Source: a virus
Lineage: Duplodnaviria > Heunggongvirae > Uroviricota > Caudoviricetes
Reading direction: 5' to 3' (one strand)
IMG/VR virus record: IMGVR_UViG_2537561992_000019
DNA: 17,225 nt
Below the pieces are notes generated by a model that did not search any database, was not told the origin of the DNA, and worked only from the letters and a program-made list of their open reading frames with translations. The first letter of the stretch is position 1. Each line of letters starts with the position of its first letter. A program made the position numbers and the translations under genes. Of this stretch, positions 661 through 17,225 are shown in pieces.

Positions 661-684
661 TAAAAAGCCCCTCCGGAGAGGGGC
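661..684 (-). terminator. rho-independent terminator-like hairpin (GCCCCTC-TCCG-GAGGGGC followed by U5 on the minus strand)
   Basis: A-run 662..666 on plus gives the U-tract on minus; sits downstream of the TerB-like/membrane gene pair. Confidence 0.5.
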
Positions 685-808
685 ATGTTTGCATGCACAT
701 TCTTTTTCTTGTATGGTGCCGGGTGCCTCCCGGTGAATTCAGTATCAGCACCTAAATCCGCGATTATCCCATATACCTGGTTGCTGATCGCCCTCCGCAC
801 AGGGGGAT

Positions 809-1446: not shown

Positions 1447-1575
1447 CGTGACGTTCCTTTGGGTGGGTGAGCCAACGCCCGGGAGCGATCTGCCCACAGA
1501 GAAAGTCACACTGACCACTCCGTAAGCTCACCCCCGAAAGGCTCTGTGGTTGATATGCGCCGGGCGTGGCGCAGA

Positions 1576-1602
1576 TACAAAAAAGGCCCGCCGAAGCGAG
1601 CC
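1576..1602 (-). terminator. rho-independent terminator after the tRNA pair
   Basis: Minus-strand RNA GGCUCGC-UUCG-GCGGGCC (7-bp stem with one G-U pair, UUCG tetraloop) followed by U6. Confidence 0.6.
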
Positions 1603-1615
1603 TGGAAAATAAGTG

Positions 1616-1692
1616 TGGCGCGTTGTAGTGGAGTCGAACCACTGACCGATTGCTTAGAAGGCAATTGCTCTGTCCGGCTGAGCTAACAACGC
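1616..1692 (-). tRNA. tRNA-Arg (anticodon UCU), 77 nt, phage-encoded
   Basis: Hand-folded cloverleaf: 7-bp acceptor stem GCGTTGT/ACAACGC, anticodon loop CTTCTAA, T-arm GTGG-TTCGACT-CCAC, encoded CCA end. Confidence 0.9.
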
Positions 1693-1792
1693 AGAATACC
1701 GATAATGGACCGCCATCGGGGACCCGCCCCCGCACCAACAACCCTGTTATGGTGTCGTCTGCTCTTCCTGATAAGCTAATGGCGGTTTGTGA

Positions 1793-1868
1793 TGGTGGCC
1801 CTTGCTGGATTTGAACCAGCGACCTGGCGATTATGAGTCGCTCGCTCTCACCACTGAGCTAAAGGGCC
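1793..1868 (-). tRNA. tRNA with CAU anticodon, 76 nt (Ile2/lysidine type by recalled similarity to E. coli ileX; Met not excluded)
   Basis: Acceptor stem GGCCCTT/AAGGGCC, anticodon loop CTCATAA, T-arm GCTGG-TTCAAAT-CCAGC, encoded CCA end. Confidence 0.85.
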
Positions 1869-1917
1869 GGGAGCAGAATAATAATGGTGCGTAATTAATT
1901 CTGCAATCTCATCCGTT

Positions 1918-2967: not shown

Positions 2968-3117
2968 AGATCAATAAGCACTTCTCTGATAGGCTCATGC
3001 CGCTTTTGCGCAAAGCAGATGGGCCTGAGGTTTGCTTGTGACCCCAACGCATGAGCAGATGGCTGGCAGGTGCCGCTAACACCCACCAGCCGCCCATTAC
3101 CACAAATTAAAAAGCCT

Positions 3118-3315
3118 TCACTGCGGAAGGCGTCTGTAACAACCGAACTGATAATCTGCCAGACCCGCCATAACAAGCTGAGTCAGTATTAACTGGCAGC
3201 GTTCGCGTGAAAGGTAAGTATTCTGCGCAATTTCCCCGACGGTCGCCGGTTCGGTGACGCTTAATTCATTAAACACCACTCTGGCGGTTTCGGTCATATC
3301 CTGCTGTTTTAGCAT
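3118..3315 (-). CDS. small putative helix-turn-helix DNA-binding protein, 65 aa
   Basis: ATG at 3315..3313 (MLKQQDMTE); HTH-like stretch ATVGEIAQNTYLSRERCQLILTQL. The track ORF starts upstream but runs through the terminator hairpin. Confidence 0.4.
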   Translation of the reverse strand: MLKQQDMTETARVVFNELSVTEPATVGEIAQNTYLSRERCQLILTQLVMAGLADYQFGCYRRLPQ

Positions 3316-3435
3316 GCCTTTTTCCCTTTTCTGGTTAACGTGACATACCAATACCTCTTGTCGAAAAAGCCAGCAAGCTGAAAGACCAGTATTCACAACT
3401 ACCAGCGCGTTTAATGTTCTGTGCCGTTTTTCAGG

Positions 3436-3462
3436 CATAAAAAAACCCGCATAAAGCGGGTT
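3436..3462 (-). terminator. tR'-like rho-independent terminator downstream of the putative Q gene
   Basis: Minus-strand hairpin AACCCGC-UUUAU-GCGGGUU followed by U7; about 190 nt downstream of the Q stop. Confidence 0.6.
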
Positions 3463-3627
3463 CTTTCAGGTGTCCATGTCTGCTATTCGCCTCGCGGTAC
3501 AGCTTTGCGAAGCGTAGCTGGATTGAAACAGTTTATGGCTAAAAATACAAGCTTTTTTTCTAAAACTGCACAAACCTTACTACCAGCCAAAAATCCTCTT
3601 CGTGCAACAACAAACGCCCTCCAGATT

Positions 3628-4182
3628 CTAAGCGTCAGTAAAAGAAAATGCATCTCGCATCAGTGGATACAGAATAAACTCAGCTATTCTCAGCCACATA
3701 TCTATACGATTGCGGCATGTTGCATAGCACCACTCAGGGTGAACCTCATTCAACAATTCAGCCATTTTGCGTTTACTCATCCCCCGCCCTTCGTATCTTT
3801 GCCGCAGGATATCAATCAATCCAGGATAACGTGCAAGCGCTTTACTTATCACCCCATCAATGCGTAACGCCTCTGCATCAGTACAGTGAGACAACCAGCT
3901 CTTCTGTCTGCCAGCGATCATCTCTCGCAAGAATGCTTCCAGCTCTGGTTTATCAATCCCTGACTCCCTGATTCTACGCAGGGCTTCATTGATTGCGGTT
4001 TTTGTCAGTTTTTTGGATGCCAGCAACTGATTGAACATATTTCCTGTTTTGCTACCACCTATATACGACCAACGCCCCCACATCCGTAATTTCCCCTGGA
4101 TCCAGACGGCTTCCAGCGTTTTTAGACGTAAATGCTCGCCGCTTTTGCCTGTAATTTCCGGGTATATCATATTTACGATCAC
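3628..4182 (-). CDS. putative late-gene antiterminator Q, 184 aa (GTG 4182) or 180 aa (ATG 4170)
   Basis: Assigned by position only: directly after rusA and directly before a strong terminator and the late-region island. No motif confirmed. Confidence 0.45.
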   Translation of the reverse strand: MIVNMIYPEITGKSGEHLRLKTLEAVWIQGKLRMWGRWSYIGGSKTGNMFNQLLASKKLTKTAINEALRRIRESGIDKPELEAFLREMIAGRQKSWLSHCTDAEALRIDGVISKALARYPGLIDILRQRYEGRGMSKRKMAELLNEVHPEWCYATCRNRIDMWLRIAEFILYPLMRDAFSFTDA

Positions 4183-4544
4183 TCACTCTCAATTTTGTAA
4201 ATCTTCACGCCCAGCCGCCCACCAGGAACGAGCTGACCGCGCACAATATTGATTTCATCAAACTGCTCGTCGTCTATGAGAAGTCCGGCATGCGTCAACG
4301 CATCCAGTGGTGCTTTCAGGATATTGTCCAGGTCACGGCGGCGCTTATCCGGTGGTTCTGCAATAATTTTTATTGCCAACCTTCCGGACAGGCTTAATTT
4401 CAGCCGCTGCTGGCGAACAATAAGCGCCACTGCCCGGCGATAACGCTCCCCGGCTTTTGATACAAAATATGTGCTGCCACGACGACGCCAGTAAGTGTTC
4501 ACCGTTGGCGGGTAAGGCAAAACAAATTCTATGCGTTCAGTCAT
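4179..4544 (-). CDS. rusA: Holliday-junction resolvase RusA, 121 aa
   Basis: N-terminal FVLPYPPTVNTYWRRRG matches the RusA family signature (recalled); stop overlaps the Q start. Confidence 0.85.
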   Translation of the reverse strand: MTERIEFVLPYPPTVNTYWRRRGSTYFVSKAGERYRRAVALIVRQQRLKLSLSGRLAIKIIAEPPDKRRRDLDNILKAPLDALTHAGLLIDDEQFDEINIVRGQLVPGGRLGVKIYKIESE

Positions 4545-5600
4545 TTATGCTTTCCACTTCAGAACACCCGAATTTCTCGCGTGCATTAAAAAACGAATCA
4601 GCAACAACAGCTGGCTGCCGTGTTTTTCTTCAAAATCTTTTACCCCGGCGTGTAGTTCGCTATGGCATTTACGGCACAGCGGAATAACAAACAAATCATC
4701 AGCCTTTGTTCCCATCCCTCCCAGTCCATGACCAATGATGTGATGCGGATCATCTGCCTGATTACCGCACGTCATGCATTTCTGCGTTTTTACCCAGCGC
4801 GTGTATACAGGCATCTCTTCCCGTTGTGATTTCTGGCGCTGGAGATACTGAGCCGGTGACTCGGGATCAACGGCAATGCTGACCACCGTCTTTTCCTGTG
4901 GCGGGTTTTGCTGGTGGGCGTGAGGCAGCGGCGCAAGATTTTTTGTGCGCTGCTTCAGTATGATGGTGGCGGTCTGCTCTCCCGGTACGATGTCGCTTTC
5001 ACGGTACATTGAGCGGATTTTTTCCGCACGCAACCCCAGCGAACGACGTAATACCGCTTCCGGTAGCGCGTCCGCCACCTGATTGCGGACCGCCCACCAG
5101 GATAATTCAGCCAGCGATAATTCCCGTTCCTGCGAGCCATTCATTGCATGGCGTATGACGTCAATCATCCATGCAGACAGGTTTTGGTGAGCAAGTTGCC
5201 CGAGTGATTCGGAGGTCTGGTCGCGCAGCTGGTTGTCGCAGTGCCAGCACAACACCATTGCGCCGGTACCATAACGGTGAATGACGGTTTCACTGTGGTG
5301 ATAATCACCGTGTGGCCACTGGCAGGATTTAACATGGCGCAGTAACCAGTCAGACAATGCGCCAGCGCCACCAGCAGCACGAATCACTCGTTCGTCGCTG
5401 AAAAATGGCAGTAATGATTTATCCTCCGCCAGCGGCTGGCGAACGGCAGGAACGACCCCGGACGGCAGATTACGCATGCTTTTCGGTTCCGGCTCCACCA
5501 GTACCCGGGTATTGTGGAATACCGGCATGGATTCACGGCCCGGCTTAACGATCACCAGCCCGAGTTCCGGTACCAGAACAGGTCGAAGTAATACCCGCAC
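4545..5600 (-). CDS. ydfU: DUF968-family protein (YdfU-like) with C-terminal HNH/zinc-finger-like motif, about 351 aa
   Basis: C-terminus CMTCGN...HHIIGHG...CRKCH is HNH-like. Size and position match YdfU of Qin (recalled). Start uncertain: GTG 5600 or ATG 5525. Confidence 0.65.
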   Translation of the reverse strand: MRVLLRPVLVPELGLVIVKPGRESMPVFHNTRVLVEPEPKSMRNLPSGVVPAVRQPLAEDKSLLPFFSDERVIRAAGGAGALSDWLLRHVKSCQWPHGDYHHSETVIHRYGTGAMVLCWHCDNQLRDQTSESLGQLAHQNLSAWMIDVIRHAMNGSQERELSLAELSWWAVRNQVADALPEAVLRRSLGLRAEKIRSMYRESDIVPGEQTATIILKQRTKNLAPLPHAHQQNPPQEKTVVSIAVDPESPAQYLQRQKSQREEMPVYTRWVKTQKCMTCGNQADDPHHIIGHGLGGMGTKADDLFVIPLCRKCHSELHAGVKDFEEKHGSQLLLLIRFLMHARNSGVLKWKA

Positions 5601-5601
5601 G

Positions 5602-5880
5602 TTACCTCCAGATGCGTTGCTGGAATGTGCGGGACGGACGCGGTGGTCGTTCGGAGTAAGGAAGCCTGACGGAGATTATCCAGTGACGATAATCGAGGCT
5701 GAGGGCTTTCTTAATCTCGTATCCGTGTCTGCGGTAGCACTGAATTAGCCACTCGGCCTGTTCTTCAGTGCATGGGGGATGCTGGAACCAGTCAGATTTG
5801 AAAGTGCGGGAACGCCGCCCGTGCCTGCTGGCAGGGGCGGCAGAGTTATCCGAATTGTAAAATTTGGTATCGTGCGCCAT
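5602..5880 (-). CDS. rem: Rem-like small protein, 92 aa
   Basis: ATG at 5880..5878 (MAHDTKFYNSDNS); sits between the DUF968 gene and hok as rem does in Qin (recalled). Confidence 0.5.
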   Translation of the reverse strand: MAHDTKFYNSDNSAAPASRHGRRSRTFKSDWFQHPPCTEEQAEWLIQCYRRHGYEIKKALSLDYRHWIISVRLPYSERPPRPSRTFQQRIWR

Positions 5881-5950
5881 CTGTTTTCTCTGCTGGCGCA
5901 GCAGGTGCCAGTTGTTCAGGCTGACGGATGGATTGTAAACCAGAACGACC

Positions 5951-5979
5951 AGAAAAAACAAAACCCGCCGAAGCGGGTT
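5951..5979 (-). terminator. rho-independent terminator at the 3' end of the hok transcript
   Basis: Minus-strand hairpin AACCCGC-UUCG-GCGGGUU followed by UUUGUUUUUUCU. Confidence 0.55.
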
Positions 5980-6047
5980 AAGTGCGGGTGCGTTGAGGAT
6001 GCCTGACACATCAGCGGTGGCGAGGGATTTCTCCCCCGCCTGGTCTC

Positions 6048-6203
6048 TTACTCCTCAGGTTCGTAAGCTGTGAAGACAGCGACCTCCGTCTGGCCGGTTC
6101 GGATTCGTACCTCGCAGAGGTCTTTCCTCGTTACCAGTGCCGTCACTATGACGGTTAAACAGATGACGATCAGGGCGATTAACATCGCCTTTTGCTGCTT
6201 CAT
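6048..6203 (-). CDS. hokD: Hok-family type I toxin, 51 aa
   Basis: MKQQKAMLIALIVICLTVIVTALVTRKDLCEVRIRTGQTEVAVFTAYEPEE matches HokD/RelF as I recall it; ATG at 6203..6201 with AGGAGA Shine-Dalgarno. Confidence 0.9.
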   Translation of the reverse strand: MKQQKAMLIALIVICLTVIVTALVTRKDLCEVRIRTGQTEVAVFTAYEPEE

Positions 6204-6375
6204 AACCTGCTTCTCCTTGCCTTTCGGCGCGTAAGAGGCTAACCTACGTTTGTGAAGCATAGATTGGGCCTCAGATTAATGTTAAGCGTCTTGCAGGACG
6301 CGTAATGTTAACTGGGGCTTTTCTCTGTCTGCCTTACGGTGGCATGCCCGAGGCAGACAGCCTCAAGCACCCGCA
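6204..6375 (-). promoter_or_regulatory. hok mRNA 5' leader, including a mok-like in-frame start at 6260
   Basis: 5' end sequence UGCGGGUGCUUGAGGCUGUCUGCCUC resembles the 5' end of plasmid R1 hok mRNA (recalled) and is complementary to the 3' end at 5983..5998. Confidence 0.5.
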
Positions 6376-6378
6376 GCA

Positions 6379-6406
6379 ATTCTACTTAACTCTCGCTTTA
6401 CAGCAA
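6379..6406 (-). promoter_or_regulatory. candidate sigma-70 promoter of hok mRNA (-35 TTGCTG, 16-nt spacer, -10 TAGAAT)
   Basis: Hexamers read on the minus strand, correctly placed 5-7 nt upstream of the inferred 5' end. Confidence 0.4.
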
Positions 6407-6446
6407 ACCGTTTTGCCCGATATGGGAATTCCCATACGGAATGAAT

Positions 6447-6551
6447 TCAGTTCCCCAGGCGCTCCATCAAAAACACAACCAGGCAGTAAACACCCACAAC
6501 AGCAATAACAGCCAGAGCGCCTTCCATTACCAGTGAAATATCATCCGACAT
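6447..6551 (-). CDS. 34-aa hydrophobic peptide (MSDDISLVMEGALAVIAVVGVYCLVVFLMERLGN)
   Basis: ATG at 6551..6549 preceded by GGGAGGG at ideal spacing; single predicted transmembrane helix. Below the ORF-track size cutoff. Confidence 0.4.
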   Translation of the reverse strand: MSDDISLVMEGALAVIAVVGVYCLVVFLMERLGN

Positions 6552-6660
6552 ATTCCCTCCCTTGGTGTGAATCCCGGCGAACGTTTTTACCCCCACCGAC
6601 AAATAACATATACTAGAAAAGCAATAGCTATAGCAACGCCTGCAAATGCATCTGGCCGGC

Positions 6661-7224
6661 TCATTGGTTCTCCCCCTGTGTCGCTTCTACTGCGATCTGA
6701 CTGGCGTATTCGTTAATGGTAACGATAAGTTCTTGCTCGGCCTCATCCAGACAACTACCGATACCTCGCCTGTCCACTTCAGAAGCATCGAAATCTGCAC
6801 GAAGCCTGGCGACCTTCAGGATTGCGGACAACACCTCATCAGGGATTGCCGGAGAGTTGGTTGACGTTTCCGAGATTATCCGAAAATTATTGGTTGACGA
6901 ACCCTTATTTTCCCGAAAGTTTCCAGCCTGAAGCATGGCGGCGCGGTGACACCAGATAATCCAGCCAAGCGCCATATCCCATGCCATGTATTCTCTATCG
7001 CCATTTTTTGCTCTGCGGCGATCTACAGATTCCCCGAAACGCTTCTCCATAAATAATTCATAGGCTGCCCGTTCATCCGATACTGATGCCAGTGATGCCA
7101 GTGCAATTTTTAATGCGGTAAGCATGTTGTTTTGATCTTCATCGAGTCCGAACGGTATTTCATCCCGTGATGACTCAATTCCGGTAATCGTGTACTGTAG
7201 CCATTCTTTGGTTAATTCAGTCAT
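6661..7224 (-). CDS. hypothetical protein, 187 aa, acidic, predicted helical
   Basis: ATG at 7224..7222; GC hairpin ACCGCCC-TTTC-GGGCGGT at 7234..7251 just upstream. No recognisable motif. Confidence 0.6.
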   Translation of the reverse strand: MTELTKEWLQYTITGIESSRDEIPFGLDEDQNNMLTALKIALASLASVSDERAAYELFMEKRFGESVDRRRAKNGDREYMAWDMALGWIIWCHRAAMLQAGNFRENKGSSTNNFRIISETSTNSPAIPDEVLSAILKVARLRADFDASEVDRRGIGSCLDEAEQELIVTINEYASQIAVEATQGENQ

Positions 7225-7350
7225 TTTTCACTACCGCCCTTTCGGGCGGTCTCCTGATGTTCTGAGGGTGCAGGAATCCCTCCGGTTAAGGATTTAATAA
7301 AAATCATTTCTGATTTAAATTTTCAGTGTTTAGTTGTTGGTTTATAGCCT

Positions 7351-7662
7351 TTATGCTTCGGCCTTATTTCTCAGCCATACACAAACAGGACCATCTTCGG
7401 TGTCATGTATCGAACCGATAAACCATCCCTCACCTTCTGGTCGCTCAGGTTCCCATGCTGAAATATCAGGGCCATCTGCGTCCAGATTAAAATCATCTTC
7501 ATCCATACTACGGATAGCCCACTGAAGATTATTTTTCTCCATCCAGGCGTTAAACTCTTCCGTTGAAATATATTCCCGACCATCACAGAATTTTTCATAT
7601 TCAGGATGCGTCCAGCAGCCATATTCATTACGTTCCACTGGCATTTCTTTAATTGCGCTCAT
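7351..7662 (-). CDS. hypothetical acidic protein, 103 aa
   Basis: ATG at 7662..7660 preceded by AAGGGGGG; ATGA overlap with the upstream gene stop. Confidence 0.6.
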   Translation of the reverse strand: MSAIKEMPVERNEYGCWTHPEYEKFCDGREYISTEEFNAWMEKNNLQWAIRSMDEDDFNLDADGPDISAWEPERPEGEGWFIGSIHDTEDGPVCVWLRNKAEA

Positions 7663-7847
7663 TTACCCCCCTTATTTAATTTTCTACGACACTTTTTACA
7701 ATCATCTGGACTTTCGAATGTATCCGGCTCACGCTCATTGCCAAAATACATCCACCCACCGCAAGTACTTGTTATTTCACCTTCAGCAAAATAATGATGC
7801 TTTTTCGCCATAAGTGGCCTTGCCCAGCCCGGATTCGTTTTACTCAC
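7659..7847 (-). CDS. hypothetical small Cys/His-containing protein, 62 aa (GTG 7847) or 50 aa (ATG 7811)
   Basis: CGG...CKKC plus HH residues suggest possible metal binding; overlaps both neighbours. Confidence 0.5.
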   Translation of the reverse strand: MSKTNPGWARPLMAKKHHYFAEGEITSTCGGWMYFGNEREPDTFESPDDCKKCRRKLNKGGK

Positions 7848-8200
7848 TTGTTGCCTCCTTTGCGAAGCTCTGCGACTAACTCGTCACATATGTGCGTCAA
7901 AGAGCAAAGTTTGATTGCTGGATGTTCGCGCACCATCTCCACACCCTGCGCCCGCAATTCTGCCAGAAAAGCGTAGGGGTCAGTTTTTTCACTGTGGTAC
8001 ATGGCATCATAGATAATCATTGCAGCGACACCTGCCTGTCCTGCATCTGTGACGGATATATGCTCAAGGGCTACGGCCATTGCGTGTTTCAACCTCTCAT
8101 TTTCCACCTCAAGCACCACACGATTAGCCTCCAGCTCTTCTATGCGTTTTTTTGCTGCTCCCAGCTCAACACGCAGCTCCTGATAGTTAATCTCGCTCAT
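7844..8200 (-). CDS. hypothetical protein, 118 aa, N-terminal coiled-coil-like segment
   Basis: ATG at 8200..8198 preceded by GGGAGGAAGGAGA; heptad-like LRVELGAAKKRIEELEANRVVLEVENERLK. Confidence 0.6.
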   Translation of the reverse strand: MSEINYQELRVELGAAKKRIEELEANRVVLEVENERLKHAMAVALEHISVTDAGQAGVAAMIIYDAMYHSEKTDPYAFLAELRAQGVEMVREHPAIKLCSLTHICDELVAELRKGGNK

Positions 8201-8421
8201 TCTCCTTCCTCCCGCACTGCTGTTTTATATGCCCGAAGCACATGCGATGTTTTTCCTGACACAGTGCTTCTCAGAAAGAAAATTCCACTGGTGTTTATTA
8301 CCAGATACGGGTCAGCAAGACGCAGCATATCCAGTATGTGATTATGTTTTCTTGTTTCCAGCACCGTACTGGAAATAAGCATATGTGACACGGGGCCGAA
8401 ATCATGATATCTGATTTTCAT
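8197..8421 (-). CDS. hypothetical protein, 74 aa
   Basis: ATG at 8421..8419; stop overlaps the downstream start (ATGA). No motif recognised. Confidence 0.5.
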   Translation of the reverse strand: MKIRYHDFGPVSHMLISSTVLETRKHNHILDMLRLADPYLVINTSGIFFLRSTVSGKTSHVLRAYKTAVREEGE

Positions 8422-8442
8422 ATCATCACCCTGCTGTAAAAA

Positions 8443-9141
8443 TTACCCGTTATCTCCTGTCGTTATTTTCTGTATGACATCACGATGCTTATTAATTTCC
8501 CGCAGCGCGGCGCATAAGCGCTCCCACTTCTGAACCTGACCTTTTGCCCGGCGCAGCTCGCGGTTAGCCACATGCAGCGATGGTAAAATCAGACCATCCG
8601 GATGCTTTCTGATGAACGACGACTGTGACTGCACTGTGACCGCCACACTTTCAGTTTTAATTTCTTCCTGTGTTTCCGCTTCCCGGACTGGTAACGCAAC
8701 ACCTGCCGGCTGAGGAAAGGCTTTACCATCGGTTTCCGTTACCGATGCAGCTTTCGGCTCTGCCGGTAAATTATCGCCCGGTATGCAGTAACGATATTGA
8801 CCGTCCTGATTTACGCGAATCAGACGACCTTTGCTGACAGCCATCGCCAGTGATGAATTCGCCCGGCGGGAGGTAATCCCGAACATTAACGCCAGTTCGT
8901 CAGCCGACTGAGGACCATGCTGTTCAATCGCGTTAATCAGCATCTCTGCAGTGGTTTTTGGGGCCGCTTCAGTTGCCTCACTCGTCAGCCACCACATCGA
9001 CCCCTTGTTATCAGCTTCGCCACGACGCTTCAGCTTCCAGAGTTCGGTAACAGCATCGTCACGGCTGATTTCAAGACGGGCTGCAATCTCGTGCGACGAG
9101 GCTTTTTTCAGTGCTTTCAGTGCGTCAAAAACGGTTTCCAT
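8443..9141 (-). CDS. hypothetical phage protein, 232 aa, with two winged-helix-like segments (possibly DUF1627-like)
   Basis: ATG at 9141..9139 preceded by GGGAGG; the track ORF starts 22 codons upstream without a Shine-Dalgarno. Confidence 0.6.
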
Positions 9142-9175
9142 TAAATTTTCCTCCCGGTAAAAATTACTTCTCAAC

Positions 9176-9838
9176 TCAGACAAAACCGGCCGCCTTCCGG
9201 CGCTCATATTCCTGTTTCAGCAATTCAATTGGCGTTGGCCCTGGCGGGCGTTTGGGTGCTGCCAGTTGTCGCCGGACTGGCGGAACACTGAGGCCATTAC
9301 CAACATGCTTTGCCCATTTCGTCAGCTGCCTTTCCACAAGCCGTTTTAACTCCCCTTCGGTCATCTGGCGCTCAATCCCCTTTGAACGCATCTCGAGGCA
9401 AATGTGGTACAGCACCGGCTGTGGCCACGGGTATTTATCACTCCCGTCGTACCGCCAGGATTCATTCCTCCAGCGACGGTATTCCTCCATCACGGCATCC
9501 ACCGTCAGGCCAAATGGATTTGCCCCGCTCTCCGAAATCAACGCCACAAACTCAGCCAGATCCGGAGGCCACGTTTCACCCGCCCGGCAGCGGTCCATGC
9601 ACCGACGGCAGATCTGCCGGATTTGCTGTTCAGTCATCGCGCCAATCTGAGCAATCCAGAGTTTCGACGGCGCAGCCCCGTTCTTCTGAGTCCAGCGGTT
9701 CGAATACACCTCCCCCATAAGCTCCCACAGCTTCCAGGCCGTTTCCGTTGCTGATAAATCCGTTTTCACGTTCCCACTGTTCGCGTGCAGCCCGGATTTC
9801 CTGAACTGCCCGTGATGCGGTGCCACCTGGTGCTGCAT
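9176..9838 (-). CDS. replication protein P-like (helicase loader), up to 220 aa
   Basis: C-terminal half resembles lambda P as I recall it ([17 protein letters not shown] vs ESYPWKSNAHYWLVTNLY). ATG 9838 has AGGGGG upstream; alternative starts at 9718 and 9637. Confidence 0.65.
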
Positions 9839-10667
9839 GGCTTACCCCCTTGCTGACTGGTTTTACCTGTGCCCTGACGTGCTGCACGTGGCGGGCAAAT
9901 TTCTGCTCCCACTGAACCTGCGTGAAAACCTTCCCCTCCGCCATCCAGTAATCCCGGAATGCGGCAAGCTCAGCAGGTGTAAACTCAGGCTCAGGCAGAG
10001 CCATACCCCACACTGCTGCCCGCTGTCGAAAATCCGGCGACGGTTGCCAGACTCCAGTCATCGGAAATTTCCCGATCGGTTCGCTCAGGCCGTCCAGGTA
10101 TTCAGGTTCGGCTGTCTGCAACGACGCGTCATTCAACTCACCGGTCGTAGCACTCTCGCGCATGCGCGCGTTATGTGTGGGGTTTAATTCTTTATCTGTA
10201 TCTGTATCTGTCGTGATTTGTCGTGACATATGCGTGACGCGTCGTGACTCATCGTGACAATCAGTGTTCTGCTTCCGCAGTCTTTCCCGCTCCCGCTGCG
10301 CTCTCTTGCGCTCTGCCGGGGATTTTGCGGTTTGCGAAACATTACCGTTATCCTCCTTCATCACCTGGCGTTTTTCCCATCCGGAAATAAGATCACCATC
10401 CAGAACTCGCCCCTGCATTGCATGCAAAATTGAATCAATCACGTCTTCCGTCACATCAAGCGCACTTGCTAAATCTTCCGTCGTGACATCAATGTGACCA
10501 CGTAGTGACACGCCGTGACATGTCGTGACATTTCGTGACGCACTCACCAGAAGGTGGATATACACCGCCATCACTGTTGCGATTGGCTGTCCTGAGACCC
10601 TGGCAATGGTTCGCCATTTGGGATCATTTGGCATGTCATGCCACAATCTGAGCCAGGCATTAGCCAT
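9630..10667 (-). CDS. replication initiator O-like protein, 345 aa, with origin iterons inside the coding sequence
   Basis: ATG at 10667..10665 preceded by GAGGTGA; two internal GTGAC iteron arrays; immediately upstream of the P-like gene. Confidence 0.7.
   Translation of the reverse strand: MANAWLRLWHDMPNDPKWRTIARVSGQPIATVMAVYIHLLVSASRNVTTCHGVSLRGHIDVTTEDLASALDVTEDVIDSILHAMQGRVLDGDLISGWEKRQVMKEDNGNVSQTAKSPAERKRAQRERERLRKQNTDCHDESRRVTHMSRQITTDTDTDKELNPTHNARMRESATTGELNDASLQTAEPEYLDGLSEPIGKFPMTGVWQPSPDFRQRAAVWGMALPEPEFTPAELAAFRDYWMAEGKVFTQVQWEQKFARHVQHVRAQVKPVSKGVSHAAPGGTASRAVQEIRAAREQWERENGFISNGNGLEAVGAYGGGVFEPLDSEERGCAVETLDCSDWRDD
10211..10258. repeat. iteron array A: five (T)CGTGA(C/T) repeats at 10-11 bp spacing, next to an (ATCTGT)x3 tract at 10194..10210
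   Basis: Repeat starts at 10211, 10221, 10232, 10242 and 10252, read directly. Confidence 0.6.
10483..10539. repeat. iteron array B: six GTGAC repeats at 10-11 bp spacing
   Basis: GTGAC at 10483, 10494, 10505, 10515, 10525 and 10535, read directly. Confidence 0.6.
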
Positions 10668-10735
10668 ACTCACCTCATCTGATACCGAACTTTACCCTCG
10701 AACATCCGGAATAAATCCGGCATGAATATTGTTGG

Positions 10736-11161
10736 TCAATGCACGACAACAGCATTACCAGGCTGACCACCACTGTTAGTCAGGGTGCCCCAGGCGATCG
10801 CCGCTGCGACAAAATCATCCACATCTTTCACCAGCCGATCCCTCCGTTCGACGATCTCACGGTAATATTCAGAGCTGTGACTGCGCATACGGGCCACCAG
10901 CAGAGGCGGCATTGCCTTTTCGATCGCCGGTAACAGAGCCTGAATTTTTTCAACAGCATCAGGGGTGTCTTTATCCAGCCAACGGAAAATTTTCTGGGTA
11001 TTACGAGCCAGGGCTTCCGGATGGCTGTCGTCGTACAGTTCCGGGAACGTCATCCCCAGCTCGAAATAAGTCCGGGCTATTTCAGCTGCAGGAACTTTCT
11101 CACCGTCCGGATAGGCCCAGGCATTGATCGCCATGCGGATGTGCTCATGTTTGATTTTCAT
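10736..11161 (-). CDS. YdaT-like protein at the cII position, 141 aa
   Basis: Starts MKIKHEHI...; its ATG overlaps the stop of the cro 3' fragment (ATGA). Family call is from recollection. Confidence 0.5.
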   Translation of the reverse strand: MKIKHEHIRMAINAWAYPDGEKVPAAEIARTYFELGMTFPELYDDSHPEALARNTQKIFRWLDKDTPDAVEKIQALLPAIEKAMPPLLVARMRSHSSEYYREIVERRDRLVKDVDDFVAAAIAWGTLTNSGGQPGNAVVVH

Positions 11162-11307
11162 GAATCCCCCTTTCCTTCGCCCTGAGTGGTATCCTTCTTT
11201 TTGTAAAGTTCTGGGTTCAAAGATAATTTCCCCTTGGAGTATGCAGCAGCTTCCGCAGCCCTCCCCTTCGGAACTATTTCACCAGGACGCTTACGCCACA
11301 TGTAAAT
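11161..11307 (-). pseudogene. cro: cro-like gene, 3' fragment (48 codons plus the duplicated ATT codon)
   Basis: Joins in frame with the 5' fragment at 13535..13615 once the IS and inverted segment are removed. Confidence 0.7.
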
Positions 11308-11350
11308 TGAGGTGTACTGGCAATAGCGGACACTACCATTTGTTCTTTTT

Positions 11351-12255
11351 TTAAGCAGCCATCTGATGATATTTTTCCCTGAAGGCTGCCGGGGAGATAT
11401 TCCCCAGACGAGAGTGACGACGCTGACGATTGTAGAAAATCTCAATGTATTCCCGTATTACTGAGATGGCTTCATCCCGGTTATTAAAACGATAGTGGCT
11501 CAGGCTCTCATTTTTCAGCGTTCCCCAGAAGCTTTCCATCGGAGCGTTGTCGTAACAGTTACCTTTACGCGACATTGATGTTTTCAGACCAAACTGCTCC
11601 TGTATGACCCGGTAATCGTATGCGCAGTACTGTGAACCTCGATCAGAGTGGTGGATTAGCCCGGCAGGTGGGCGCTGGCTCCTGAGCGCCATAAACAGAG
11701 CTTTACCTGTCAGCTCTTTTGTCATGCGCTCTCCCATGGCGTAGCCGACAATTTCGCACGTATAAACATCTTTGATGCCAGCGAGGTACAACCATCCCTC
11801 CTGTGTGGCAACATACGTCAGGTCCGCCACCCAGACCTGATTTGGTGCTGTAGGAGCGAACGTCTGGTTCAGCAGATTTGGCGCAACTGGCAGATTGTGG
11901 TTCGAGTTCGTAGTCGCTCTGAACTTGCGTTTCTGCTTACAGCGTAGCCTTAGCTCCTTACGAAGACGTGCCAGTCGGTCACGACCAACGATGATGCCAT
12001 TCTCTGCCAGCTCCGTCTGGAGCCGCCGGGTTCCATATGTTTCGCGAGTGCGGATATGTGCCACCTTAATCTCCAGTTTTAGCCGCTCATCACTTTGTTT
12101 CTGTCTGAGGGTTCATGCTGTACCCAGTTGTAATAACCGCTCCTGGATACACCAAATACCTGACACATCGCTTCAATGGGAAATTGTTGTCGCCATTGTT
12201 CGATTAACGCGTATTTTTCAGCGACTCCTGTGCAAAATACGCTGTTGCTTTTTTT
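11351..12255 (-). pseudogene. IS3-family transposase orfB, frameshifted by a 1-bp deletion
   Basis: TTT at 12098..12100 where copy 2 has AAAA at 14086..14089, truncating the OrfAB frame. Confidence 0.7.
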
Positions 12256-12506
12256 AATATATCTCGCTCAAGGCGAGCTTCATTTAACGCCTTACGCAGT
12301 TGCAGAATTTCAGATTCCAGTTCAGCCACCGTGCGGGAACCAGGAGTACCGAGCCCTTTTCTGGCGGCGGTAACCCATTGTCCTAAAGTGCCTTCAGGAA
12401 GAGATAATCGGGAAGCGCCTTCACTGATCGAAAGTTGATTTTCAAGAACCGTTCTGACAGCTTCGGCTTTGAACTCTTTAGAGTAACGTTGGGTTTTTCT
12501 GCTCAT
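12204..12506 (-). CDS. IS3-family transposase OrfA, 100 aa
   Basis: Protein identical to OrfA of copy 2; HTH-containing N-terminal transposase part. Confidence 0.85.
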   Translation of the reverse strand: MSRKTQRYSKEFKAEAVRTVLENQLSISEGASRLSLPEGTLGQWVTAARKGLGTPGSRTVAELESEILQLRKALNEARLERDILKKATAYFAQESLKNTR

Positions 12507-12698
12507 TATTAGCTCCTTCTGATGCCATTCTATTTCAGGAAGGAGTGTCCGTTAAACTCAGGCTACCTCACTGTTATACAAAGTGTTCCCGCCGTCATGT
12601 TCATACGCCTCGGGCTGGCTACTTAACCCCTGACCACTGCCGGGTAACTCGAGGTATTGCCCGACGTTCTGTGGGGCGAGGTAGGGTGGTATGTAATA

Positions 12699-12727
12699 AA
12701 TCTAAAAGTATTTAGTTTTTCAGTCAA
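12699..12727 (-). promoter_or_regulatory. candidate PL-like promoter (-35 TTGACT, 17-nt spacer, -10 TAGATT) with overlapping operator 12700..12717
   Basis: Hexamers read on the minus strand; operator ATCTAA-N6-TTAGTT overlaps the -10; palindrome AATCTAGATT at 12732..12741. Confidence 0.4.
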
Positions 12728-12746
12728 GATAAATCTAGATTAATTT

Positions 12747-12772
12747 AAAAAAAAGGTCGGCATTGCCGACCT
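12747..12772 (-). terminator. rho-independent terminator directly after the cI stop
   Basis: Hairpin GGTCGGC-ATT-GCCGACC followed by U8 on the minus strand. Confidence 0.6.
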
Positions 12773-12792
12773 CAAGTAAAGGACGTGGCGGG

Positions 12793-13440
12793 TTATAAGT
12801 TGAACTGTACACCTTTTGCTACGGCAACAATTTTACACTCTGGTGTAAGTAAGGATGACTGATAGCGTGGATTGAGAGGGCTTAAATACACAAGCTTCCC
12901 ATCAATAACTAATTTCTTTATAGTCATAGATGGTTCATTTTTAAGCGGATCCGGAACTATTACAGCGACGATGCTGCCATTTTTATAACTTTCTCCTGGC
13001 CTTAGGATCACAGTAGCACCAACTGGGATACTCGGTGATCCTGATGGGTTATGCATTGTGTCATCAGGCATTGAAACGGCAAAATCACCTTCCTCGACAT
13101 CAAAGAATGTGGTGATCCTATCGACATTTCCCATTGTTTTCTCTCCTTTTAAGATTAGGAAAGAAATCGCCTCACCCCACGAAAGGTAGGGGATCTTGGT
13201 GCCTGAGGTACTTTGTACAAAAGATAATTCAGGAGACGATACTCCATATAGGAGATAGGACTCAGTAGTTCCTAATGCCTGGGCTAACTTACTTAGAGCT
13301 TTGCTACCTGGTTCGTTTAGATCTTTCTCCCAGTACCCTATAGTAACCCCAGTCACGCCTGAAAGCTTACCCAGTTCTACTTGGGTCAGCCCCTTATCTT
13401 TTCTAAGTCTCTTAAGCCTGATGCCAAGGCTTTCCATCAT
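12793..13440 (-). CDS. cI: CI-like prophage repressor, 215 aa (N-terminal HTH, C-terminal LexA-like S24 peptidase)
   Basis: ATG at 13440..13438 preceded by AGGAGAAA. HTH LTQVELGKLSGVTGVTIGYWE; S24 region with Ser in AVSM and Lys in TIKKL, resembling lambda CI (recalled). Confidence 0.85.
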   Translation of the reverse strand: MMESLGIRLKRLRKDKGLTQVELGKLSGVTGVTIGYWEKDLNEPGSKALSKLAQALGTTESYLLYGVSSPELSFVQSTSGTKIPYLSWGEAISFLILKGEKTMGNVDRITTFFDVEEGDFAVSMPDDTMHNPSGSPSIPVGATVILRPGESYKNGSIVAVIVPDPLKNEPSMTIKKLVIDGKLVYLSPLNPRYQSSLLTPECKIVAVAKGVQFNL

Positions 13441-13479
13441 TTTCTCCTGCAAATTGAATATAAATTATTTTAGATTGCA

Positions 13480-13522
13480 TTGACCTAAAAAAAATTATCT
13501 TGTAATCTAAAAATACTTAGAT
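13480..13522 (+). promoter_or_regulatory. candidate PR-like promoter (-35 TTGACC, 17-nt spacer, -10 TAATCT) with perfect operator ATCTAA-N6-TTAGAT at 13505..13522
   Basis: Read directly; drives the cro fragment, which has AGGAGG Shine-Dalgarno and ATG at 13535. Confidence 0.45.
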
Positions 13523-13534
13523 TTAGGAGGTAAA

Positions 13535-13615
13535 ATGCGAGTTGATGAACTTGTCCAGTTTTTTGGTTCTGTTCAGAGGGTTGCCGATTTTTATGGGATA
13601 ACCCGCGAAGCTATT
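13535..13615 (+). pseudogene. cro: cro-like gene, 5' fragment (27 codons), truncated by the IS insertion
   Basis: MRVDELVQFFGSVQRVADFYGITREAI; the next codon is TGA supplied by the first bases of the IS. Confidence 0.7.
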
Positions 13616-13679
13616 TGAGGTAGCCTGAGTTTAACGGACACTCCTTCCTGAAATAGAATGGCATCAGAAGGAGCTAATA

Positions 13680-13982
13680 ATGAGCAGAAAAACCCAACGT
13701 TACTCTAAAGAGTTCAAAGCCGAAGCTGTCAGAACGGTTCTTGAAAATCAACTTTCGATCAGTGAAGGCGCTTCCCGATTATCTCTTCCTGAAGGCACTT
13801 TAGGACAATGGGTTACCGCCGCCAGAAAAGGGCTCGGTACTCCTGGTTCCCGCACGGTGGCTGAACTGGAATCTGAAATTCTGCAACTGCGTAAGGCGTT
13901 AAATGAAGCTCGCCTTGAGCGAGATATATTAAAAAAAGCAACAGCGTATTTTGCACAGGAGTCGCTGAAAAATACGCGTTAA
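13680..13982 (+). CDS. IS3-family transposase OrfA, 100 aa
   Basis: ATG at 13680 after GAAGGAG; contains the A7G run at 13931..13938 near its 3' end. Confidence 0.85.
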   Translation: MSRKTQRYSKEFKAEAVRTVLENQLSISEGASRLSLPEGTLGQWVTAARKGLGTPGSRTVAELESEILQLRKALNEARLERDILKKATAYFAQESLKNTR

Positions 13983-14836
13983 TCGAACAATGGCGACAAC
14001 AATTTCCCATTGAAGCGATGTGTCAGGTATTTGGTGTATCCAGGAGCGGTTATTACAACTGGGTACAGCATGAACCCTCAGACAGAAAACAAAGTGATGA
14101 GCGGCTAAAACTGGAGATTAAGGTGGCACATATCCGCACTCGCGAAACATATGGAACCCGGCGGCTCCAGACGGAGCTGGCAGAGAATGGCATCATCGTT
14201 GGTCGTGACCGACTGGCACGTCTTCGTAAGGAGCTAAGGCTACGCTGTAAGCAGAAACGCAAGTTCAGAGCGACTACGAACTCGAACCACAATCTGCCAG
14301 TTGCGCCAAATCTGCTGAACCAGACGTTCGCTCCTACAGCACCAAATCAGGTCTGGGTGGCGGACCTGACGTATGTTGCCACACAGGAGGGATGGTTGTA
14401 CCTCGCTGGCATCAAAGATGTTTATACGTGCGAAATTGTCGGCTACGCCATGGGAGAGCGCATGACAAAAGAGCTGACAGGTAAAGCTCTGTTTATGGCG
14501 CTCAGGAGCCAGCGCCCACCTGCCGGGCTAATCCACCACTCTGATCGAGGTTCACAGTACTGCGCATACGATTACCGGGTCATACAGGAGCAGTTTGGTC
14601 TGAAAACATCAATGTCGCGTAAAGGTAACTGTTACGACAACGCTCCGATGGAAAGCTTCTGGGGAACGCTGAAAAATGAGAGCCTGAGCCACTATCGTTT
14701 TAATAACCGGGATGAAGCCATCTCAGTAATACGGGAATACATTGAGATTTTCTACAATCGTCAGCGTCGTCACTCTCGTCTGGGGAATATCTCCCCGGCA
14801 GCCTTCAGGGAAAAATATCATCAGATGGCTGCTTAA
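13931..14836 (+). CDS. IS3-family transposase orfB segment, expressed as an OrfAB fusion by programmed -1 frameshift
   Basis: The -1 frame is open from the A7G run to the stop at 14836; first in-frame ATG is at 14018. C-terminal half has the IS3-family catalytic region (HSDRGSQY, MSRKGNCYDNAPMESFW). Confidence 0.8.
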   Translation, partial: KKSNSVFCTGVAEKYALIEQWRQQFPIEAMCQVFGVSRSGYYNWVQHEPSDRKQSDERLKLEIKVAHIRTRETYGTRRLQTELAENGIIVGRDRLARLRKELRLRCKQKRKFRATTNSNHNLPVAPNLLNQTFAPTAPNQVWVADLTYVATQEGWLYLAGIKDVYTCEIVGYAMGERMTKELTGKALFMALRSQRPPAGLIHHSDRGSQYCAYDYRVIQEQFGLKTSMSRKGNCYDNAPMESFWGTLKNESLSHYRFNNRDEAISVIREYIEIFYNRQRRHSRLGNISPAAFREKYHQMAA

Positions 14837-14934
14837 AAAAAGAACAAATGGTAGTGTCCGCTATTGCCAGTACACCTCACAGCGCAGCAGGTTTTTAGTT
14901 CCGCGACCCGGCGTTAAGGGTAAATGAGGTCAAC

Positions 14935-15087
14935 ATGGATATGCTCAATCTTGGCAACAATGAATCTCTGGTGTGCGGAGTATTCCCCAACCACGACGGC
15001 ACGTTTACCGCGATGACGTATACCAGAAGTAAAACGTTTAAAACCGAAGCTGGCGCGCATCGCTGGTTAGCAAGAAACGCTAACTGA
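14935..15087 (+). CDS. ydfA: small protein, 50 aa, YdfA/YdaF-like, first gene of the PL-type operon
   Basis: ATG at 14935 after GAGGT; position before dicF/dicB matches ydfA of Qin (recalled). Confidence 0.55.
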   Translation: MDMLNLGNNESLVCGVFPNHDGTFTAMTYTRSKTFKTEAGAHRWLARNAN

Positions 15088-15349
15088 TTAGCGCCAGTAA
15101 AAACAGGTTTCCACAGGTTAATTTACCCTGAAAAGTCAGGGCATAACACGAAAGCGCACGGCGAGATCCCTTTGCATATAAGTCTTGTCGTTAAATTTCT
15201 TCGACCGTGCGCTTCTGGTTGTGGCAATCCGCGAAATGGCGCGGCGGTAAGTATGGCGGGGTTATTCCTTCCCCCATTGAGGACACCGGGTTGTCAGGTT
15301 GACCATACGCTTAAGTGACAACCCCGCTGCAACGCCCTCTGTTATCAAT

Positions 15350-15407
15350 TTTCTGGTGACGTTTGGCGGTATCAGTTTTACTCCGTGACTGCTCTGCCGC
15401 CCTTTTT
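15350..15407 (+). ncRNA. dicF: DicF small RNA (53 nt, 15350..15402) plus its terminator U-tract
   Basis: TTTCTGGTGACGTTTGGCGGTATCAGTTTTACTCCGTGACTGCTCTGCCGCCC followed by TTTTT matches E. coli DicF as I recall it; lies just upstream of dicB. Confidence 0.8.
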
Positions 15408-15576
15408 AAAGTGAATTTTGTGATGCGGTGAATACGGCTAAGCGCACGCGGAACAGTTAAAACCAAAAACAGTGTTATGGGTGGATTCTCTGTATCCGGC
15501 GTTAATTGTTAACTGGTTAACGTCACCTGGAGGCACCAGGCACTGCATCACAAAATTCATTGTTGAGGACGCGATA

Positions 15577-15765
15577 ATGGAAACGTTATTACCAAACGTT
15601 AATACGTCTGAAGGTTGTTTTGAAATTGGTGTCACTATCAGTAACCCTGTATTTACTGAAGATGCCATTAACAAGAGAAAACACGAACGGGAGTTATTAA
15701 ATAAAATATGCATTCTTTCAATGCTGGCCCGTTTACGTCCGATACAAAAAGGATGCTGGCAATGA
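15577..15765 (+). CDS. dicB: cell-division inhibitor DicB, 62 aa
   Basis: METLLPNVNTSEGCFEIGVTISNPVFTEDAINKRK... matches DicB (recalled); GAGGA Shine-Dalgarno. Confidence 0.9.
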   Translation: METLLPNVNTSEGCFEIGVTISNPVFTEDAINKRKHERELLNKICILSMLARLRPIQKGCWQ

Positions 15766-15953
15766 ATACAGCATTTGCACTTGTTCTGACAGTTTTTCTT
15801 GTTTCCGGAGAGCCAGTTGATATTGCAGTCAGTGTTCACAGGACAATGCAGGAGTGTGTGACTGCAGCAACCGAACAGAAAATTCCCGGTAACTGTTACC
15901 CTGTCGATAAAGTTATTCACCAGGATAATAACGAAATCCCGGCAGGTCTTTAA
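15762..15953 (+). CDS. ydfD: YdfD-like small lysis-associated membrane protein, 63 aa
   Basis: MNTAFALVLTVFLVSGEPVDIAVSVHRTMQEC... matches YdfD (recalled); ATG overlaps the dicB stop (ATGA). Confidence 0.8.
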   Translation: MNTAFALVLTVFLVSGEPVDIAVSVHRTMQECVTAATEQKIPGNCYPVDKVIHQDNNEIPAGL

Positions 15954-16045
15954 AACAGTTCCGTAATAAACATCCGATTTCATTCTTATATGCCAGAAAT
16001 GGCAGGGATTTGTTCACCCTTAAATCTGTAATGAGGTAAAACAAA

Positions 16046-16942
16046 ATGAGTAAAGTCTTTATTTGCGCCGCCATTCCGGACGAACAGGCAATAAAGGAAG
16101 AAGGTGCAGTCGCTGTAGCCACTGCCATTGAAGCCGGTGATGAACGTCGCGCCCGCGCAAAATTTCACTGGCAATTCCTGGAACATTATCCGGCTGCTCA
16201 GGACTGCGCTTATAAATTTCTTGTTTGCGAGGATAAACCCGGTATACCCCGCCCTGCCCTCGATTCCTGGGATGCTGAATATATGCAGGAAAACCGCTGG
16301 GATGAGGAGTCTGCTTCCTTTGTCCCGGTTGAGACTGAATCAGATCCGATGAACGTCACTTTTGACAAGCTGGCCCCTGAAGTACAGAACGCTGTCATGG
16401 TTAAGTTCGACACATGTGAAAACATCACCGTTGATATGGTGATTAGCGCGCAGGAATTGTTGCAGGAAGACATGGCAACATTCGACGGACATATCGTTGA
16501 AGCGTTGATGAAAATGCCAGAAGTTAACGCCATGTATCCGGAGCTTAAGCTGCATGCCATCGGGTGGGTTAAGCATAAATGTAAGCCTGGTGCCAAATGG
16601 CCCGAAATTCAGGCAGAGATGCGCATCTGGAAAAAACGTCGCGAAGGTGAACGCAAGGAAACCGGAAAATACACGTCTGTTGTTGATCTCGCCCGCGCCA
16701 GAGCCAATCAACAGAACACTGAAAATTCAACAGGAAAAATCAGCCCGGTCATTGCTGCCACTCATCGCGAATACAAGCAGACATGGAAAACACTGGATGA
16801 CGAACTGGCCTACGCTCTCTGGCCTGGTGATGTGGATGCCGGAAACATTGACGGCAGCATCCATCGCTGGGCAAAAAAAGAAGTTATCGACAACGACCGC
16901 GAAGACTGGAAGCGCAGTCTCAGCAATGCGCAAACAGCCTGA
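16046..16942 (+). CDS. ydfE: YdfE-like hypothetical protein, 298 aa
   Basis: Long acidic ORF directly after ydfD, as in Qin; family call is from recollection. Confidence 0.6.
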   Translation: MSKVFICAAIPDEQAIKEEGAVAVATAIEAGDERRARAKFHWQFLEHYPAAQDCAYKFLVCEDKPGIPRPALDSWDAEYMQENRWDEESASFVPVETESDPMNVTFDKLAPEVQNAVMVKFDTCENITVDMVISAQELLQEDMATFDGHIVEALMKMPEVNAMYPELKLHAIGWVKHKCKPGAKWPEIQAEMRIWKKRREGERKETGKYTSVVDLARARANQQNTENSTGKISPVIAATHREYKQTWKTLDDELAYALWPGDVDAGNIDGSIHRWAKKEVIDNDREDWKRSLSNAQTA

Positions 16943-17225
16943 TGCCCTTCGCTACGACCGCCAGACTATTTTTGGCCTTGTCCGTGAACGTCCGATCGAC
17001 ATTCACAAAGACCCTGTGGCACTGAACAAATACATTACTGAATACCTGACTACAAAGGGCGTGTTTGAAGATGAAGGAAGAAATCAGAGCGCAACTGATA
17101 CTCTCTCGTCGCCAGTACCAGAAACTGATGCAGTGGAAACGGCAATTCCGGACAACGAAAAACCGAATAGCAAAGTGGAAGTCGAACCATCTGTAGAGCG
17201 TGAAGGGCCGTTCTACTTCCTCTTC
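16926..17225 (+). CDS. hypothetical protein, N-terminal 100 codons, runs off the window end
   Basis: ATG at 16926 overlapping the previous gene by 17 nt; 100 codons with no stop. A competing 40-codon frame from ATG 17071 is less likely. Confidence 0.35.
   Translation, partial: MRKQPDALRYDRQTIFGLVRERPIDIHKDPVALNKYITEYLTTKGVFEDEGRNQSATDTLSSPVPETDAVETAIPDNEKPNSKVEVEPSVEREGPFYFLF

Follow-up and report, generated by a model that had tools for sequence, protein, structure and literature searches.

Two copies of one insertion sequence (IS) bracket the immunity region of a prophage in Escherichia coli EPECa14, and the locus raises the question of whether the region between them has been turned round in place and, if so, by which route. 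The DNA analysed here (the window) is the entire contig ADUN01000023.1, 17,225 bp, of the circa-2010 draft genome GCA_000188755.2. Judged from its gene content, the host element is a defective lambda-like prophage, a lambdoid element without stx and with a Rac/Qin-like early region: the early right side carries ydaT and DnaT-like and P replication genes (annotation of the prophage of E. coli O26:H11 11368), and the early left side carries DUF1391, DicF, dicB, exonuclease, xis, and int (11368 annotation and Rfam). The original prediction, made from the letters without database searches, held that two inverted IS copies, each with its own 3-bp target duplication, had recombined and thereby inverted the segment between them. 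We identified both copies as IS600 and found that, in the contig as deposited, the immunity segment is opposite in direction to its flanks and the target duplications of the two copies are reciprocal, as is found in IS-mediated inversions.

A repeat search returned two pairs of inverted arms, 11308-12100/14087-14879 (793 nt) and 12098-12570/13616-14088 (473 nt), each 100% complementary. Both belong to one 1263/1264-bp repeat interrupted by a single 1-nt indel, and 1,045 nt lie between the copies. Copy 1 (11308..12570, minus strand, 1263 bp) has its right inverted repeat (IRR) at 11308 and its left inverted repeat (IRL) at 12570; copy 2 (13616..14879, plus strand, 1264 bp, canonical) has its IRL at 13616 and its IRR at 14879. 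The IRL of both copies faces the segment and the IRR of both faces outward. The sole difference between them is AAA in copy 1 versus AAAA in copy 2 at IS position 471. Over positions 1-1264, copy 2 was 100% identical to elements annotated as "IS3-like element IS600 family transposase", and RefSeq gives "programmed frameshift" for an element identical to it. On the plus strand it contains orfA (13680-13982), an A7G slippery site near 13935, and orfB (14018-14836); Pfam assigned HTH_Tnp_1 to orfA and rve/rve_3/rve_2 to orfB. In copy 1, orfA lies at 12204-12506 on the minus strand and orfB is thrown out of frame near 12100 by the loss of 1 nt (A4 to A3), possibly a sequencing error. The IS ends, TGAGGTAGCCTGAG... 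and TGAGGTGTACTGGC..., are the imperfect terminal inverted repeats starting TG...CA of IS600. The joining of orfA and orfB by a -1 programmed frameshift at an A-rich slippery site and the 3-bp target duplication are also those of IS600. Gene callers commonly derive a truncated OrfB of 237 aa from intact IS600, and this ORF is uninformative.

At the junctions as read, copy 1 is entered from ...GTAAAT into TGAGGTGTACTGG and left from CTACCTCA into CTGTTATAC, while copy 2 is entered from GAAGCTATT into TGAGGTAGCC and left from ACACCTCA into CAGCGCAGC, which gives the overall pattern AAT-IS-CTG...ATT-IS-CAG. AAT (11305..11307) is the outer target duplication of the insertion at cro codon 27, and its reverse complement ATT (13613..13615) is the inner copy. 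CAG (14880..14882) is the outer target duplication of the second insertion, and its reverse complement CTG (12571..12573) is the inner copy. A direct 3-bp duplication was thus present at 0/2 window copies, unlike the simple IS600 insertions in other genomes used as controls, where it was present at 4/4 (AAG, AAT, GGG, and CCC). Reciprocity of the two triplets by chance would have a frequency of (1/64)^2, or ~2.4e-4; chance is irrelevant here because the breakpoints are shown by alignment to a reference.

As the IS-free reference we used the 11368 prophage (coordinates on L003), which is 99.9% identical to the window. Window positions 1-11307 aligned to L003 25053-13744 on the minus strand, 12571-13616 to L003 12701-13747 on the plus strand, and 14879-17225 to L003 12704-10356 on the minus strand. 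The strand of the middle block is opposite to that of both flanks, and it switches at 11307/12571 and at 13615/14880. These breakpoints coincide exactly with the IS ends, which confirms the boundaries independently of the IS termini. Each target triplet occurs once in 11368 (L003 13744-13746 and 12701-12703) and twice in the window. The boundaries of the copies in the original prediction, 11308..12570 and 13616..14879, were correct to the base by the repeat search, by identity to IS600, and by this alignment, and a misreading of the IS ends, which would have undone its argument, is excluded by the latter two. The reciprocity of the triplets that it reported was likewise read directly, and each triplet is single-copy in 11368.

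The ancestral arrangement was reconstructed by taking out the two IS600 elements together with one of each pair of triplets and reverse-complementing 12574-13612, and it was queried against 5,426 complete E. coli genomes. The reconstruction gave one uninterrupted match of 99.9% in dozens of O26:H11 genomes and in enteropathogenic E. coli (EPEC) E110019, and at least 80% of it was found un-inverted at one place in 469 genomes. None of these 469 genomes holds the window arrangement. Re-inversion and alignment to relatives, which had been suggested with the original prediction, therefore yielded a single match in O26:H11 prophages and restored a 75-aa Cro; relatives with the same repressor orientation and no IS, which would have spoken against an inversion, were absent from the 469.

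The inverted segment is an immunity module (12571..13615, 1,045 bp), whose match in L003 (12701-13746) is on the plus strand, that of both flanks being on the minus strand. Everything that had been placed in it (cI, its terminator, both operator sets, and the 5' end of cro) was present according to Pfam, a promoter scan, and a motif search. The cI-type repressor gene (12793..13437, minus strand) is intact and encodes 214 aa from the RefSeq start, with alternative starts at 13440 and 13452. Its product has the Pfam domains HTH_3 (E=2e-12) and Peptidase_S24 (E=5e-11), and the gene occupies the place of the 645-nt "LexA family protein" coding sequence (WP_000444615.1) in 11368, from which it differs by no substitution. 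Downstream of cI is an intrinsic terminator (12753..12773, minus strand) with a 9-bp stem containing 6 GC pairs, followed by a T-run. The OL-like region (12699..12747, minus strand) has operator-motif sites at 12699-12714 and 12732-12747 that overlap a PL-like promoter, found by the promoter scan as TTGACT-17-TAGATT from 12727 to 12699 on the minus strand. This promoter points into IS600 copy 1 at its IRL end, running in the orfA sense direction. Between cI and cro, the OR-like region (13457..13524) has a motif site at 13461-13476 and a palindromic one at 13504-13523, and inverted repeats were found in it besides the motif matches. By our own reading of the hexamers by eye, a putative PR-like promoter, absent from the promoter-scan output, would consist of TTGACC (13480-13485) and TAATCT (13503-13508) on the plus strand with a spacing of 17. 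The operator motif AATCTANNNNTANTTA had 5 matches at 4 sites, all within the segment (12699-13523), against 0.17 expected in the window; two of the predicted operator sites lie next to PL and the other two in the cI-cro interval. As in a lambdoid immunity module, a repressor with helix-turn-helix and S24 domains is divergent from cro, and predicted operators lie at both promoters flanking the repressor gene.

The truncated cro' (13535..13618, plus strand) ends after 27 codons at a TGA that the start of IS600 copy 2 provides, and its start codon is at 13535 rather than at 13536, where it had originally been placed. The orphan 3' part (11158..11304, minus strand), comprising codons 28-75 and the stop, is parted from its own 5' part and promoter. 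After re-inversion, 13535-13615 (27 codons) continues in frame into 11304-11158, giving the 75-aa Cro. In the restored protein, Pfam P22_Cro covers residues 5-64, and its counterpart is the 228-nt cro coding sequence WP_001261752.1 in 11368. A 95-aa open reading frame (ORF) that is an IS/cro chimera had no entry on record in a protein look-up.

On either side of the IS copies stand the early operons. The gene in the ydaT/cII position (10736..11161, minus strand, 141 aa; Pfam YdaT_toxin, E=7e-11; "toxin YdaT family protein" in 11368) is the first intact gene of the early-right operon and lies directly downstream of cro in the ancestor. The start of the early-left operon (14935..15402, plus strand) comprises the DUF1391 gene (14935-15087; Pfam E=1e-28) and the DicF small RNA (sRNA) (15351-15402; Rfam 76.7 bits). 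In the assembled state it faces PR, not PL, across IS copy 2. DicF (15351-15402, plus strand) is upstream of dicB, and both are cell-division inhibitors located just downstream of IS600 copy 2.

How, then, did the arrangement arise? We propose that two IS600 insertions in opposite orientation entered the EPECa14 prophage, each with a 3-bp target duplication. One would have entered after cro codon 27, with the target ATT on the cro strand, and the other ~125 bp downstream of the PL-like promoter, with the target CAG. Homologous recombination of the RecA type between the 1.26-kb inverted copies would then have flipped the 1,045-bp block, so that either IS would be bordered by one triplet of both original pairs (AAT-IS-CTG...ATT-IS-CAG). 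We infer both the order of these events and the recombination route, and we hold a real inversion by homologous recombination after two insertions to be marginally more probable than improbable. According to two accounts, the IS3 family transposes by copy-out-paste-in via a circle, giving simple insertions (PMC7780238; bioRxiv 10.1101/2023.06.07.543989). The recombination route is preferred over one coupled to transposition in part because IS3-family elements normally give simple insertions, as in our controls.

The required insertions are of a kind seen elsewhere. IS600 has been amplified in E. coli lineages that produce Shiga toxin (STEC), including O26 (PMC9397093), and its disruption of prophage regulation is known. 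The early region of this prophage has been hit by IS600 at at least 4 other independent sites in other O26 strains (including L001 3652-4915, L012 301-1564, L013, and L014). Among these are the DUF1391-dicB interval, a small gene past the DUF1627 block, the exonuclease gene, and, in RM10386, a junction accompanied by a ~6-kb deletion reaching up to TerB. These cases suggest that the early region is IS600-prone or IS-tolerant, and two hits 1 kb apart are unsurprising because IS600 repeatedly strikes it. Moreover, the complete genome of strain 6883 (CP074998.1) has a Qin-like (dicC/dicB) prophage with an inverted IS600 pair 2.39 kb apart (L017 4409-5672 and 8064-9327), which splits DUF1482 and recE. 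Both copies have direct target duplications (AAG/AAG and AAT/AAT), and the segment between them is not inverted. By analogy, this pair would be the kind of un-inverted intermediate that the two-step route needs, at other sites and in a related prophage.

Several observations nevertheless weigh against the two-step reading. Neither a single nor an un-inverted double IS600 at these sites was present in the complete E. coli genomes, which were searched for the window arrangement and for each outer junction; phage records gave matches to IS600 only, with no intermediate at either site; and scans for the exact junctions returned 0 matches in genomes representing species and in viral and metagenome contigs. 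The three genomes that do have one IS600 in the reconstructed stretch have it between DUF1391 and dicB, a different site. The order of events is therefore undocumented, since both insertions are private to EPECa14 and no intermediates were found. The swapped-triplet signature would be equally expected from a transposition-coupled inversion. In addition, the window is the whole contig of a fragmented circa-2010 draft. Both inner junctions join the segment to IRL and both outer junctions join a flank to IRR, and with identical IS copies the inverted and un-inverted states would have all k-mers in common up to k=1265.

The most serious alternative is that one IS600 arrived by ordinary transposition and that the second copy and the inversion were produced together in one intramolecular event. 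In such an event, the IR-IR junction of a tandem IS dimer, or a replicative strand-transfer intermediate, would attack a target 1 kb off in inverting orientation, duplicating the IS and splitting the old and new target duplications. Derived on paper, AAT-IS-CTG...ATT-IS-CAG is expected from it whichever site came first. Precedents exist: intramolecular replicative transposition of IS26 "in trans" is reported to leave IS copies in inverted orientation, their target repeats being reverse complements (PMC12502706), and copy-out-paste-in elements can give inversions via IS-dimer junctions, such dimers having been demonstrated for IS2 and IS3 among others (PMC9333248). A single step would also account for two strain-private copies that lie 1 kb apart, inverted and with the segment flipped, and for which no intermediates were found. 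However, the norm of the IS3 family is simple insertion with a direct target duplication, as in 4/4 controls, and dimer-mediated inversions are minor products known chiefly from plasmid assays. Nor does the proximity of the copies need a special mechanism, as the region is independently hit by IS600 and nearby inverted pairs exist un-inverted. We regard this route as rather unlikely, about half as credible as recombination between two prior insertions. The part of the original prediction that attributed the inversion to recombination between inverted IS copies is supported by the swapped triplets and the strand switch and names the most likely route, though not the sole one, as a transposition-coupled inversion gives the same product.

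A further alternative is that no inversion occurred in the cell, the true structure being AAT-IS-AAT...CAG-IS-CAG with the 1-kb piece placed arbitrarily by the assembler or finisher, or that the culture was mixed and one state was reported. The fragmented draft and the shared k-mers would fit this, and flipping the piece back gives a pair of ordinary insertions whose direct duplications (AAT...AAT and CAG...CAG) are perfect. The differences from 11368 are mostly 1-nt homopolymer deletions, the error type of pyrosequencing, and they include the sole difference between the IS copies. Against it, the contig traverses two copies of a multi-copy IS that were called separately, with a 1-nt difference, from which we infer that long-range information such as mate pairs or the polymerase chain reaction (PCR) was probably used, which would also fix the orientation. 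A reference-guided join would have given the un-inverted order, not the deposited one. The locus tag _0859 on contig 23, i.e., ~40 genes per contig, weakly points to an assembly more contiguous than if every IS had broken it. Even arbitrary placement leaves either real state about equally likely. We consider this alternative improbable, and that the block was truly inverted in the sequenced clone is, in our judgement, quite likely. The claim that the segment is inverted holds for the contig as deposited, but junction sequence does not distinguish the orientations: the junctions of the alternative are the same in sequence, and nothing but linkage across the IS sets the two apart. Because all subsequences up to 1,265 nt are shared, the two states are indistinguishable in reads shorter than the IS without mate pairs. 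The two insertions are supported directly by junction sequence, and the inversion depends on linkage (mate pairs or PCR) outside the contig sequence. As a lesson of method, an inversion is not proved by swapped duplications round an inverted IS pair alone when the draft dates from the short-read era.

The idea that the whole IS600-cI-IS600 unit was inserted as a composite transposon has practically no probability left: inverted IS copies with the same end (IRR) outward do resemble the Tn5/Tn10 type, but the internal 1,045 bp are native to the locus and, in relatives that lack the IS, run on into either flank without a break (99.9% identity), AAT and CAG on the outside form no direct repeat, and the 11368 alignment, with neither a single direct duplication nor foreign cargo, refutes it. 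An invertase-driven switch was also rejected; there is no invertase in or beside the segment, the intact ORFs are cI and the IS600 transposase genes only, and the repeats are the entire IS.

Some features of the sequence itself deserve mention. Relative to 11368, 1-nt homopolymer deletions occur at 226, 661, 790, 12746, and ~17163, and also at 12100 in IS copy 1. The one at 226 leaves nanS-p/SASA esterase with a truncated ORF of 103 aa (135-446, minus strand). Such single-base deletions are probably pyrosequencing errors rather than real pseudogenes. Single-nucleotide and several-nucleotide deletions that alter the C-terminus of YjcC have been published for a strain set including EPECa14, and the EPECa14 YjcC deletions may share the homopolymer-error cause. 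At 16915-16923, a cluster of substitutions and a 2-bp deletion are found in the recE-like exonuclease gene, and its ORF ends at 16942 with 298 aa versus ~823. This truncation has a pattern unlike homopolymer error, and in the protein collection the shortened product occurs in EPECa14 only. Two close-set substitution pairs, 4764/4767 and 15434/15440, interrupt the otherwise 99.9% identity to 11368 and have no obvious significance.

Returning to the inversion by recombination, its consequences can be predicted from the order of the parts. As cI, PRM/OR, OL/PL, and the terminator are intact, immunity should persist. Cro, reduced to 27 residues, would have been destroyed by the insertion itself. 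A whole IS would stand between either of PR and PL and any phage operon, and with the block flipped each promoter would point at the wrong operon: PL would face an IS and then 'cro, ydaT, and the replication genes, and PR an IS and then DUF1391, DicF, dicB, exo, xis, and int. Transcription from both promoters would enter an IS600 at its IRL end, in the orfA sense direction. No terminator-like site was found on the sense strand within IS600, and read-through across the element is for this reason conceivable. At the outer ends, neither flank showed a convincing -10 element when the IRR junctions were inspected by eye for hybrid outward promoters. The prophage is most likely immune, locked, and non-inducible. 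This would be a plausible way to lock a prophage so that immunity to superinfection is kept and toxic early genes, dicB for example, are silenced, and the locus offers a small, clean case of IS expansion in EPEC and enterohaemorrhagic E. coli (EHEC) disabling and scrambling prophage regulatory circuits.

Wherever RecA is active, low-frequency flipping of the block would be expected to continue. It is highly doubtful that the IS600 pair makes the module a recombination-driven flip-flop in which both states coexist and differ in the operon that each repressor-controlled promoter faces. If it did, PR would read either toward the replication and late genes or toward DicF, dicB, exo, xis, and int, and in either state loss of the repressor (SOS) would drive PL and PR into both IS600 transposase genes, coupling IS600 to derepression. 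A further possibility would be mobilisation of the cI cassette as an IS600-bounded unit, bringing immunity to other replicons.

Other loci of the prophage lie away from the immunity region. The AgvB anti-GcvB sRNA (594-655, plus strand, 96.5 bits) and the STnc100 sRNA (656-846, minus strand, 125.7 bits), both detected with Rfam, are located between the TerB/DUF3927 genes and nanS-p, the late-region slot that carries stx in Stx phages. A hok/sok type I toxin-antitoxin locus was found at 6048-6372 (minus strand; sok 114.9 bits), and hokD is annotated at the equivalent place in 11368. Two phage-borne tRNA genes, tRNA-Arg(TCT) and a CAT-anticodon tRNA, are at 1616-1692 and 1793-1868, respectively, both on the minus strand. 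The latter is called Met by ARAGORN and Ile by RefSeq, and tRNA-Arg, which has a G/A difference from 11368 at 1677, is still detected.

IS-mediated inversion is a textbook rearrangement and is common in IS-rich E. coli and Shigella/EHEC genomes. The EPECa14 locus resembles the IS inversions of E. coli and Shigella in having inverted IS copies at the breakpoints, a segment reversed relative to IS-free relatives, and exchanged target duplications. Such inversions are reported to be routine in E. coli evolution experiments, where they have been catalogued for IS1 and IS150; in laboratory-evolved E. coli their median size was 84 kb and the smallest measured 2.2 kb (PMC12065110). At 1,045 bp, the EPECa14 inversion is tiny by comparison and, unlike those catalogued, its block is exactly a phage immunity module, and its reversal swaps PL and PR between the early operons. 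The final structure (inverted IS copies, inverted segment, and reverse-complement repeats) is the same as that of duplicative inversion by IS26 or IS1 and of IS30-type dimer inversion (PMC12502706; PMC9333248); unlike IS26 and IS1, IS600 belongs to the IS3 family, its main pathway is copy-out-paste-in, and its duplication is 3-bp, not 8-bp. With the IS600 insertions of O26:H11 and other STEC prophages the locus shares a 100% identical element, 3-bp duplications, and the same early region, which is affected in many O26 strains. The other O26 cases are single insertions or deletions, whereas here two copies at sites unique to EPECa14 bracket and flip a module. This instance appears to be unreported in the searchable literature, where EPECa14 is named in a single paper, on an unrelated gene, and the accession is cited in none, while the class of event is known; as IS-mediated inversions and IS600 in O26 prophages are well documented, it raises no new question.

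The locus also invites comparison with dedicated switches and with intact immunity modules. Like fimS, Hin, and Gin/Cin (Mu, P1), it has a ~1-kb promoter segment between inverted repeats, with two possible orientations that change the targets of its promoters. In contrast to these, its repeats are 1.26-kb IS copies rather than short recombinase sites, and its arrangement is conserved in no other genome. Like lambda, Rac racR-ydaS-ydaT, and Qin dicA-dicC, it has a divergent repressor/cro pair, an S24 repressor, operators at both promoters, and ydaT beside cro. Unlike all three, its cro is split and its module is reversed and insulated from both early operons by IS600.

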